IMG/VR virus record: IMGVR_UViG_3300037400_002732 | Location: 32,001 to 96,000 of that record | Length of the DNA stretch: 64,000 nt | Reading direction: 5' to 3' (one strand) | From: a virus | Lineage: Duplodnaviria > Caudoviricetes | Shown: piece after piece, positions 60,679 to 63,631 of the stretch | How positions within the stretch are numbered: the first letter of the stretch is position 1 | How the letters are laid out: every line of letters begins with the position of its first letter | The notes under the pieces: model-generated | Told to the model about the DNA's origin: nothing | The model's input: only the letters and a program-made list of their open reading frames with translations | The model's database searches: none | Made by a program: the position numbers and the translations under genes

Positions 60679-60733
60679 TGTTTCATGTGAAACATTTTAT
60701 TGTTTCACGTGAAACATTGTTTCACATGAAACA
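60679..60733. promoter_or_regulatory. parS: array of three parS-type palindromes
   Basis: TGTTTCATGTGAAACA (60679-60694), TGTTTCACGTGAAACA (60701-60716), TGTTTCACATGAAACA (60718-60733). Confidence 0.85.
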
Positions 60734-60736
60734 TTG

Positions 60737-60764
60737 AAAATCCGTCAAACCATGGCGGATTTTT
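60737..60764 (+). terminator. rho-independent terminator for ORF 58528..60675
   Basis: AAAATCCGTCA-AACCA-TGGCGGATTTTT; the stem mismatch is a G:U pair on plus-strand RNA. Confidence 0.75.
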
Positions 60765-61953
60765 CTTGTATAATTGGTGAACTACTCACAGCGTAAAGGC
60801 TGTGAGCTTCGCGTTTCGTATCGATGTTTCCCGCGCCTTTAACCGCAGTCCCTGCGGCGATTAATCTTTTACCTTCGGTAAGGATGTTGATGGCGGCATT
60901 GACGTCACGGTCATGAGATGTTCCGCACTGCGGACACGTCCACGACCTTACGTTCAAGTCCTTGGCCAACATATTTCTATAACCACATCGATGACAGAGC
61001 TGAGTTGATGGAAACCATCGTCCGACACGGACGATGGTTCGTCCGTACCATTCAGCCTTATACTGTAGTTTGTTCAGAAACATCCTCCAAGCGGCGTCAT
61101 GTTCAGACTTCGCGTGGACACCCTCGGAGACCTCGCGCACGTCGAGATCTTCGACCACCACCGTTTGGTTCTCGCGGAGTAGTCGAGTGGACAGCTTGCC
61201 AAGAAAATCCTTCCTTCGGTTAGCAACTTTTTCATGTTCGCGAGCAATGCGTACGCGCAACTGCTCGCGTCTATTTGAACCTTTCTGCTTTTTGGATAAA
61301 GCTCGCTGAAGGTCAGCGATACGATTTTCCGATTCTTTTTGGAACCGAGGATTCGAGACAGCTTCGCCGTCGCTGGTAACGCAGAATTCTTTAAGCCCTA
61401 AGTCGATTCCTATTTCGAATTCGGATGTCGGCAGTGCCTTCGGCACAGCCTCCTCGACCAAGATCGACGCATAGTAATTTCCAGCACGTGACCGTGACAC
61501 GGTCACGTGCTTGATGTCCCTTACAGACCAGTCGATATCTTCGTAGTTGCGGAAGGAAACTAAGCCTACCTTCGGCAGACGGAGCCTCCGCCCTTCTACA
61601 CGAATGTTGTTTTTCGTACGGTAAGTTGTATATGAATCCTTGTCGTTGTGCTTTGTCTTGAACTGCGGAAATCCGACTCCGTCGGCTTTCCGATCGAAGA
61701 AGTTCTTGAATGCCGTATTCAACGTAAGCACTTCGGCTGTCAAGGCGTTCGAATCGACTTCTTTCAAGAAAGGAAACTCTGTGTAGAAATCCGTCGGCTT
61801 AGACCGGCACTGCATGCCGGTCGCCTCGTATGATTTCTTACGTGCTTCTAACATGCAGTTGTAGACCTTACGGCAGCAGCCGAAAGTCTTGCAGAGCAAG
61901 ACTTCCTGATGCTTGTTAGGATACAGTCTGACGTTGTAGGCACGTTGAAACAT
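60745..61953 (-). CDS. tnpB: RNA-guided endonuclease TnpB (IS200/IS605 family)
   Basis: HTH RAYNVRLYP..FGCCRKVYN; RuvC GIDLG, VEDL, DRDVNAAINI; zinc finger CHRC..CPQC; catalytic D/E/D intact. Confidence 0.96.
   Translation of the reverse strand: MFQRAYNVRLYPNKHQEVLLCKTFGCCRKVYNCMLEARKKSYEATGMQCRSKPTDFYTEFPFLKEVDSNALTAEVLTLNTAFKNFFDRKADGVGFPQFKTKHNDKDSYTTYRTKNNIRVEGRRLRLPKVGLVSFRNYEDIDWSVRDIKHVTVSRSRAGNYYASILVEEAVPKALPTSEFEIGIDLGLKEFCVTSDGEAVSNPRFQKESENRIADLQRALSKKQKGSNRREQLRVRIAREHEKVANRRKDFLGKLSTRLLRENQTVVVEDLDVREVSEGVHAKSEHDAAWRMFLNKLQYKAEWYGRTIVRVGRWFPSTQLCHRCGYRNMLAKDLNVRSWTCPQCGTSHDRDVNAAINILTEGKRLIAAGTAVKGAGNIDTKREAHSLYAVSSSPIIQEKSAMV
60757..60900 (-). ncRNA. predicted omegaRNA/reRNA (5' boundary approximate), guide CAATTATACAAGAAAAATCC
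   Basis: TnpB omegaRNAs overlap the tnpB 3' end and right end and read into the flank; boundary set by the TCAC end at 60777. Confidence 0.6.
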
Positions 61954-62072
61954 GGTTCAATAGTTCTAATCTTTATTTTTTATATAGTTTATAACTAGTT
62001 AAATTATTTTTGTCACGTTCCGTGCCTATTATCTGCCACCCTTTATGGTGGCAGTTTTCTCAGTGCGTTCTT
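60777..62072 (-). mobile_element. non-autonomous tnpB-only IS200/IS605 element, 1296 bp
   Basis: Left end: TTAT|AAG...AAAA plus hairpin 62033-62054. Right end: GAAG plus hairpin 60785-60806, then TAGTTCAC|. No tnpA. Confidence 0.85.
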
Positions 62073-62104
62073 ATAAACTGCACACAAATCACGTTGAGTA
62101 AACC

Positions 62105-63631
62105 ATGAAGACTAAGGCTATTTTAGAAAGCAACGCTATGCAAGATAACGAGCTTGCCGCGAATGGTGGTGATATTGACAACACTGGTATCCCAAGTGGT
62201 CTTCCTTTGGCTAAAGGCCAGCAAGGTAATGTCAAGTCCGAGCAAAAACTGCTGAATGACGCCTTTGACGAAGGCTACGATGAAGCTATGCTCGACGCTG
62301 ACCTGGCTGCCGAACAGAAAGCAAGCGAAGATCCGTTTGGCCCAGAGACAAAGCATACTATTAAATTCGATGAAGAAGCTGAACGAGACAATGTCGATCT
62401 TCCAGAACAACAAGAAAGCTATATCGACCAACTGGCCAAGTACTACCGAGTAATGGCTCAAGAATTCAAGCTACGTTTTCACGACAAGCCAGAAGACGGC
62501 GAAAAGCTGGCACAGTTCTTAGTCACTAAGATTCTCAGCAAGCCGAACAGCACCAATGCGCAAAAATGGATCGATTACATCAACAACAGGGCGCAGAAAG
62601 GCAAGAGTAAGTCAATAATCCAGATGAAGATTATTCCTACGTTAGCTAAAGCGGCCAACATCGAAGTACCTCGTCAAGTCAACAACGAACAAACTGAATA
62701 TATCGCAAACCGAAATGGAAATTTCGTAGGGTCTATAGTCGTTCCGGAAGGCTTCAACCAGCCGCCAATCGACTTAGGCAATACAGCGATCTCATTCGAA
62801 TTTGGATACCCGGCAATCAACTACAAGAGTAAACTGATCACCGAAATTACTGGGGAAACCGAACAGAATCGTCTCAAGAAGTTGCTAATCGCATTGATCG
62901 AGCAAATCAACGGAACTCCAGCAGCGAAGACATTTTTGACTCGCGGCGTATTTCAATCATGGACTGGAAAGAAAGCTCGTTCAACATTGAATCGAGTGAT
63001 TAAAGAAGCGGCCCATGCAATGGGTGTTCCAATGATTCGTCGTCCATTAAAAGTTACCGCGCAAGCATTAGTCGGCGACTCAGAGGCTGAAGACATTTCA
63101 TGCATCCCTATCAATCAGACTGCCAACAAGAAGGCGATCGTACGCGAGTCAATAGACGCAAACGATACGAACGCATTATATGAGGGCCCTATCAACTTTA
63201 TCAAGAATCGCTTTAAAGCTGACTCGACTTCCGCACAGATGTTCGGTCAACCAGTAACATTGAACCGCAATTACTTGTGCCAATTCTATACCGTCTTGGC
63301 ACCAAGTGGTACAGCCGGTCTGACTAAGTACGCAAGGTTCATGGATCAAGACGATTACGACAATATAGTCAGTAAGCTTGGCGAGAAAACAATGCAAGAA
63401 ATCAAGGACGCCAACAGCAATGTGAACGACCGTTTGTTCATTGATTATCTCAACAAGACTAGCGGGGTTCCGCCATTCTATATCCTTATTCCTCGTAAGA
63501 ACGAACGCATCCGCGTATGCGACGAGAATATGGTAAACGGCAATGTCTGCGTCAAGTCAATCGACAGCAAAAACAAGGAAGCATACTTCTTCCCTCAAGA
63601 AAATGTTAAATCCGTATTCGAAGCTGGGTAA
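62105..63631 (+). CDS. late protein, paralog of 58528..60675
   Basis: ATAAACT at 62073-62079; N-terminal AILES; GVPPFYILIP. Confidence 0.85.
   Translation: MKTKAILESNAMQDNELAANGGDIDNTGIPSGLPLAKGQQGNVKSEQKLLNDAFDEGYDEAMLDADLAAEQKASEDPFGPETKHTIKFDEEAERDNVDLPEQQESYIDQLAKYYRVMAQEFKLRFHDKPEDGEKLAQFLVTKILSKPNSTNAQKWIDYINNRAQKGKSKSIIQMKIIPTLAKAANIEVPRQVNNEQTEYIANRNGNFVGSIVVPEGFNQPPIDLGNTAISFEFGYPAINYKSKLITEITGETEQNRLKKLLIALIEQINGTPAAKTFLTRGVFQSWTGKKARSTLNRVIKEAAHAMGVPMIRRPLKVTAQALVGDSEAEDISCIPINQTANKKAIVRESIDANDTNALYEGPINFIKNRFKADSTSAQMFGQPVTLNRNYLCQFYTVLAPSGTAGLTKYARFMDQDDYDNIVSKLGEKTMQEIKDANSNVNDRLFIDYLNKTSGVPPFYILIPRKNERIRVCDENMVNGNVCVKSIDSKNKEAYFFPQENVKSVFEAG

Follow-up and report, generated by a model that had tools for sequence, protein, structure and literature searches.

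A transposase-less IS200/IS605-type element beside a promoter-like motif in a rumen jumbo phage

A tnpB-only element of the IS200/IS605 type lies in a jumbo phage genome, between a terminator-like hairpin and a promoter-like motif (Table 1). The explanation that we consider best, with a probability of about 75%, is that it represents a family of tnpA-less IS200/IS605 insertions in rumen jumbo phages, and that its TnpB cuts alleles from which the element is absent. The mechanism is that of known TnpB elements, not a new one, and among the sequences searched the family is so far known only from rumen jumbo myophages. TnpB genes are common in phages, but what they do there is largely conjectural; the present family provides a well-defined natural example, with exact ends, empty sites, a promoter-nested target, its own copy of the promoter motif and a consistent lack of transposase.

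The window, that is, the whole stretch of DNA analysed here, comprises 64,000 nucleotides, bases 32001-96000 of an IMG/VR virus record that is 174.8 kb long. By CheckV's estimate this record is 46% complete, and its source is therefore a jumbo phage. Its genes include those for a 1159-aa tail sheath, a baseplate wedge protein, a family-B DNA polymerase, a clamp loader and a UvsX-like recombinase. As judged by annotation, the phage is a myovirus with a T4-like set of replication and recombination genes.

Table 1. Features of the element and its immediate surroundings (positions in the window)
Feature	Position	Strand	Basis
Whole tnpB-only IS200/IS605-type element, 1296 bp	60777..62072	-	Ends from 17 related copies and orthologous empty sites
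Target and predicted TAM, TTTAT	62073..62077	-	Directly 5' of left end; GTTTAT in 11 of 11 AAAA-guide copies
Left-end subterminal hairpin (62033-62054) with 4-nt guide AAAA (62055-62058) at its 5' foot	62033..62058	-	Fold; guide co-varies with target
Right end: guide GAAG (60807-60810), hairpin (60785-60806), then TAGTTCAC with cleavage site TCAC (60777-60780)	60777..60810	-	Copies, folds
tnpB ORF, 402 aa, last 10 codons outside the element	60745..61953	-	Pfam and ISDra2 TnpB match
Element's own ATAAACT, 33 nt upstream of tnpB ATG	61986..61992	-	Motif list; conserved in all family copies
Putative omegaRNA scaffold overlapping tnpB 3' end	60777..60956	-	RNAalifold; 5' limit approximate
Flank forming the would-be 16-nt guide CAATTATACAAGAAAA, target in the empty allele	60761..60776	-	Direct reading; position inferred from ISDra2-type TnpB biology
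Terminator-like hairpin and U run of the upstream 717-aa gene	60736..60769	+	RNA fold -17 kcal/mol, z -4.9; conserved in orthologous regions
Promoter-like core ATAAACT of ORF 62105-63631, 26 nt before ATG	62073..62079	+	Motif statistics, position logo; also before the orthologous gene in relatives

Boundaries of the element and its empty sites

An insertion sequence carrying only tnpB had been proposed at this locus by a sequence-only reading, and comparison with relatives confirms it, since the ends and the empty orthologous sites agree. A scan of viral contigs detected 27 loci related to the element, 15 of them 67-90% identical to it, and a genome scan added four ruminal-MAG contigs. The right terminus ...GTAGTTCAC is common to 17 related copies; all 17 have the terminus GTAGTTCA(C/T), and their sequences diverge directly beyond it. 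At the left end, alignment among the copies holds up to a TTTAT or TTTAG junction. Both boundaries of the element are thus exact.

Read on the minus strand, the left end follows TTTAT and consists of AAGAACGCACTGAG, the guide AAAA and an eight-base-pair hairpin, CTGCCACC..GGTGGCAG (DNA fold -11.7 kcal/mol, z -4.7). The right end runs from GAAG through the hairpin CTCACAGC..GCTGTGAG to the terminal TAGTTCAC. Hairpins at both ends show compensatory changes across copies, and terminal inverted repeats are absent. Insertion is 3' of TTTAT in 11 copies, or of TTTAG in a sister subgroup, with no duplicated target bases. In these respects the element resembles ISDra2 of Deinococcus radiodurans and IS608 of Helicobacter pylori, which likewise have subterminal hairpins, lack inverted repeats and target duplications, insert 3' of a short motif (TTGAT or TTAC) and carry a 4-nt guide 5' of each hairpin that pairs with the cleavage site.

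Two nearly complete jumbo phages have homologues of the genes on either side, whose products are 717 and 508 amino acids long, and the gene order is conserved. In a related 348-kb phage the corresponding intergenic region measures 95 nucleotides and holds no element. When position 60776 is joined to position 62073, the product aligns without gaps across the junction to this empty region, in which GGCGGATTTTTCGTATTTAATTG is followed directly by ATAAACTAAC (or, in a longer reading, ...GGCGGATTTTTCGTATTTAATTG by ATAAACTAACC). The junction TAATTG/ATAAACT that had been predicted to result from removal of the element is therefore one that exists in a phage, and the expected restoration of TGATAAACT by excision is likewise supported. 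In all, the region is empty in four related lineages, one of them represented by the 348-kb phage. Further lineages were sought by scanning metagenomes with a profile of the 508-aa protein, and the junction is empty in L092, L094/L096, L095 and a G001-like group. The phages with empty sites are distant, with flanking proteins 26-56% identical to those of the window. Exact scans of viral and metagenome contigs for the reconstructed empty junction returned nothing, a single-protein query of viral contigs with the 508-aa neighbour found no close relatives, and megablast of the region against GenBank phages gave no match. The empty orthologous junctions indicate an insertion that is real, clean and confined to the lineage of the window.

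These observations also bear on whether tnpB is simply an ordinary resident gene of the phage, with no mobile insertion involved. Its single-copy state would suit such a gene, but conserved synteny, a region that is empty in four lineages, an exact junction and the recurrence of the same 1.3-kb unit with identical ends in unrelated contexts make this reading extremely improbable. At one insertion site shared by two relatives (L004 and L016), the element is 90.6% identical, compared with ~78% over 2.9 kb of flank; this is suggestive of horizontal arrival of the element at that site, though not decisive.

The location between a terminator and a promoter motif, which had also been claimed, stands: a terminator hairpin recognised by its fold lies on one side of the element and the promoter-like motif on the other. 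On the plus strand, the left-end hairpin and the adjoining TTTTCTC, the reverse complement of the AAAA guide, score as an intrinsic terminator (62033-62063) just upstream of ATAAACT, and this structure could protect ORF 62105 against antisense transcription running across the element.

Between the stop codon of the 717-aa gene and its terminator, at 60679-60733, are three tandem 16-bp palindromes with zero or one mismatch to the bacterial parS consensus TGTTTCACGTGAAACA. They are the sole such sites in the window (0.01 expected), and related phages have one to three parS-like copies at the corresponding place. A search of the record, at 46% completeness, for a ParB_N domain found none. In one related phage contig (L093, positions 180-330), a TTTAG-type family member is inserted at another point of the corresponding intergenic region, upstream of the parS site and away from the promoter; the contig stops within the element.

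Target choice and the ATAAACT motif

The record contains 55 copies of ATAAACT, the joint top count among permutations of its letters, and 39 of the 55 are intergenic, though intergenic DNA makes up 5% of the record. Correct orientation and a position 8-45 nt before an ORF start are found for 43 copies, most of them 20-30 nt before start codons, and the extended consensus is A-A-c-T-G-ATAAACT-(A/G)-C. On these statistics ATAAACT behaves as a promoter-like motif, and it would fit a promoter recognised through a single -10-like element. For comparison, the T4 late promoter is TATAAATA. The label "late", given to the motif in the sequence-only reading, is not supported: the motif precedes the tail sheath gene and also the first gene of an operon extending into the DNA polymerase gene. 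PHROG and Pfam searches with the genes downstream of the motif gave mostly no matches. The element has a copy too, as does every family member, located ~30-45 nt before its own tnpB ATG. Given this conservation, the element-borne ATAAACT looks like an adaptation to phage transcription.

Every ATAAACT contains TTTAT on the opposite strand, and promoters do therefore offer the target motif, as the sequence-only reading had noted. That reading had placed the target at TTAT (62073-62076), which is correct in position but too short, since the conserved target is at least TTTAT. Insertion took place between promoter position -1 and the heptamer, leaving TTCTT-ATAAACT. The promoter had been described as intact after insertion, which is partly so: the heptamer remains, as does a T at -1, the second commonest base there, but the conserved upstream AAcTG is replaced by left-end sequence. 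Two further parts of that reading, that the insertion does no harm and that the element homes against co-infecting IS-free phages, are extrapolated from what is known of TnpB.

The predicted base pairing that specifies the target can be followed among the aligned copies, in which GAGAAAA before the hairpin goes with TTTAT and GAGAAAC with TTTAG. The AAAC/TTTAG copies are divided between two separately supported clades of a TnpB tree, one of them nested among AAAA/TTTAT copies, so a single guide base and its target base have switched together at least twice. At the right end, the family has GAAG with TCAC, whereas the combination in the nearest relative with a tnpA (44% identity) is GAAT and TCAA. 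Pairing between guide and cleavage site of the IS608 type, predicted earlier for both ends from this one copy, is thus borne out by co-variation at each (AAAA/TTAT and AAAC/TTAG on the left). One copy, L044, departs from the rule with a right-end GAAA and TCAC. A right-end GAAA with TCAT in L006 had been considered as a further case of co-variation and was dropped because L044 combines GAAA with TCAC. We argue from the co-variation that a Y1 transposase has moved elements of this family over evolutionary time. IS608 has reportedly been retargeted by engineering, and the change from TTTAT to TTTAG, evolved twice through a single guide base, would be a natural replicate of such retargeting.

How closely the family is tied to promoters was assessed by mapping the other copies relative to ATAAACT. 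All 11 TTTAT copies read ATAAAC(T/G) outward from the left end, and all 11 face a divergent ORF starting 8-47 nt away. TTTAG copies do not, and are situated in intergenic sites that lack the promoter motif. A simple account of this pattern is that the link is incidental, i.e., that any TTTAT is accepted and that, with 95% of the genome coding, insertions persist only between genes, with no adaptation of the target. Of 81 intergenic TTTAT sequences in the record, 39 (48%) are already in AGTTTAT, that is, in promoter cores, and the TTTAG subgroup occupies motif-free intergenic sites, in one case within the same intergenic region of another phage; both facts are what an incidental link would produce. 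Against it, 10 of 11 TTTAT copies have AGTTTAT before the left end and the eleventh has CGTTTAT before a gene start, which, relative to an expectation of 48%, corresponds to a binomial p of ~0.004 with one genome as background. Moreover, the left end begins with A or C in every copy and so places at promoter position -1 a T or a G, which are the two most frequent bases at that position. An incidental link is a serious possibility, to which we would give a little less than even odds. The association with promoters appears to be largely what selection against gene disruption would lead one to expect, with a modest excess remaining.

TnpB, its RNA and the missing transposase

The tnpB product matches the Pfam families OrfB_IS605 (PF01385), Cas12f1-like_TNB (PF07282) and HTH_OrfB_IS605 (PF12323). 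It is homologous to ISDra2 TnpB (E 5e-81), and the equivalents of D191, E278 and D361 are D, E and D. Both a RuvC-like domain with this D-E-D triad and a zinc ribbon (TNB) are present. Because the triad is kept, TnpB should be an active nuclease and not a repressor of the TldR type, and its sequence suggests a compact nuclease like that of ISDra2, with a TAM predicted to be T-rich. The reading frame continues for 10 codons beyond the right end into the flank, and matches to other proteins end at residue 392-395 of 402 because copies diverge just past that end.

As in ISDra2, the RNA scaffold would overlap the 3' end of tnpB. RNAalifold, applied to 17 copies, predicts 43 pairs over the last ~180 nt, nine of them with compensatory changes, including a long-range pairing of UGAAC with GUUCA beside the guide. 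No Rfam family scored above its gathering threshold for the putative omegaRNA; weak RNAI-type matches were set aside, as they lie beyond the element, over the palindrome and the terminator. The guide had been said to match the empty allele, and it does, but the match is automatic given how the guide is defined. In the closest empty allele (G002), 3 of 16 positions are mismatched to the guide, so this allele would probably not be cut, a point that we count against the preferred explanation.

The distance from the left end to the tnpB ATG is only 119 nt, which leaves no room for tnpA within the element. This differs from ISDra2 and IS608, and the difference extends to the carriers, since a search with PF01797 (Y1 TnpA) found no match in the ten records that carry the family, three of which are at least 91% complete. 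Next to more distant TnpBs of other viral records, the same search does detect TnpA. Lacking a Y1 HUH transposase, the element is non-autonomous, and any Y1 transposase must come from outside the phage, with the proviso that the window's record is only 46% complete. One Fibrobacter MAG with an IS200-type TnpA also holds copies of the IS family. This TnpA was considered as a partner acting in trans; the sequence of its end hairpin shows no relation to that of the family, the contigs of the MAG seem to stem from phages, and the case gives support neither way.

Lack of transposase raises the question of whether the element is an immobile, domesticated remnant, in which TnpB and its RNA are kept as a weapon against IS-free competitors, or for another function, without copying or transposition. 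Such a history would agree with the single copy and the lack of TnpA in every carrier, with a phage-type promoter before tnpB, and with decay among relatives, where L017 has five stops and the left ends of L014 and L006 are damaged. It is unlikely, however, in that intact hairpins and guide/cleavage pairs co-varying in two clades only make sense under continued transposition of the Y1 type. One relative's genome also has three copies at different sites, and the identity of the shared-site element exceeds that of its flanks.

Proposed mode of spread and its relation to known systems

According to the preferred explanation, the element would have inserted 3' of TTTAT by the single-strand "peel and paste" route. 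As TTTAT is the reverse complement of part of ATAAACT, it would thereby have come to lie head-to-head with the promoter of ORF 62105, just past the upstream terminator. Transcription of tnpB would start from the element's copy of the phage motif, and the 3' end of the mRNA together with the right end would give rise to an omegaRNA whose 16-nt guide comes from the flank. The resulting TnpB-omegaRNA complex is predicted to cut TTTAT followed by CAATTATACAAGAAAA, i.e., the empty site. New insertions would depend on a Y1 transposase provided in trans, whether by the host or by another element. During co-infection, TnpB would cut IS-free genomes, and recombinational repair from an IS-carrying genome would keep the element in place and probably spread it. 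The UvsX-like recombinase makes it plausible that the element homes from one co-infecting phage to another. The record has a single copy of the IS family despite its 55 ATAAACT sites, which counts against the explanation, as do the negative scans for a near-identical IS-free allele and the incompleteness of the record.

A stronger version holds that this is a phage-specialised, transposase-less TnpB lineage that acts as an RNA-guided gene drive, uses the promoter motif both as landing site and TAM and as the driver of tnpB, and only rarely borrows a Y1 transposase from the host. We put this forward tentatively and regard it as rather doubtful. If it is true, the lineage would be an RNA-guided counterpart of the Seg and Mob homing endonucleases of T4, and, if homing in mixed infections occurs at all, phage mosaicism would be driven by RNA-guided nucleases as well as by protein homing endonucleases.

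The concept of homing between co-infecting phages has already been published. Spread driven by TnpB in the absence of TnpA has been shown for the IS200/IS605 TnpB "gene drive" in multicopy plasmids (PMC11870625), and a 2026 review names co-infecting phages as a theoretical target of "non-restorative homing" (PMC13565253). The phage element shares with both a guide that records the insertion site and, as predicted, TnpA-independent cutting of IS-free copies in a polyploid setting. Unlike the plasmid system, its setting would be co-infecting genomes with T4-like UvsX recombination. What is new here is the co-variation of left guide and target in two clades, the placement of tnpB behind its own ATAAACT, the lack of a Y1 transposase in ten carrier records, and the combination of D-E-D residues with compensatory RNA pairs. 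A literature search, which was not exhaustive, found no paper on this phage IS family or on a promoter-nested target.

Other comparisons are instructive. Like the free-standing homing endonuclease genes Seg and Mob of T4-like phages, tnpB is a selfish nuclease gene in an intergenic position with a phage promoter, and its spread would be expected to occur by double-strand-break repair in mixed infection. Unlike them, it is RNA-guided, would sense the presence or absence of the element instead of sequence polymorphism in a neighbouring gene, and has transposon ends. TldR proteins are phage-encoded, nuclease-dead TnpB-like repressors (PMC10705468). They too are phage-borne TnpB relatives with guides that address promoter regions; however, the TnpB described here keeps all three RuvC residues and intact transposon ends, and its guide is directed at the element's own empty site instead of a host promoter. 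From ISDra2 and IS608 the family is further distinguished by its residence in lytic-type jumbo phage genomes, and by a target inside the carrier's own promoter-like motif, a copy of which is used by tnpB.

The related contigs come from samples with genome bins labelled ruminal, and their records have one to eight TnpB-like genes apiece. Two ruminal MAG contigs (L042 and L043) hold the same element with matching flanks and are binned in a Prevotella MAG and a Fibrobacter MAG, and other family-carrying MAG contigs encode an amidase and Thg1. These are probably phage fragments mis-binned into bacterial genomes, which makes them unreliable for host assignment. Among relatives, L017 (G003:C1:159659-166784) is a decaying copy with five in-frame stops, and in L014 and L006 the left-end hairpins are truncated or mutated and the targets are off-rule. 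The 259,974-bp phage record that contains L017 (G003) has eight TnpB-like zinc-ribbon matches, belonging to several families, and is without a Y1 transposase. The record analysed here also has, outside the window, a second TnpB-like gene (L002, G000:C1:18808-19935, plus strand), whose product is 32% identical to that of tnpB and which has an ATAAACT upstream.
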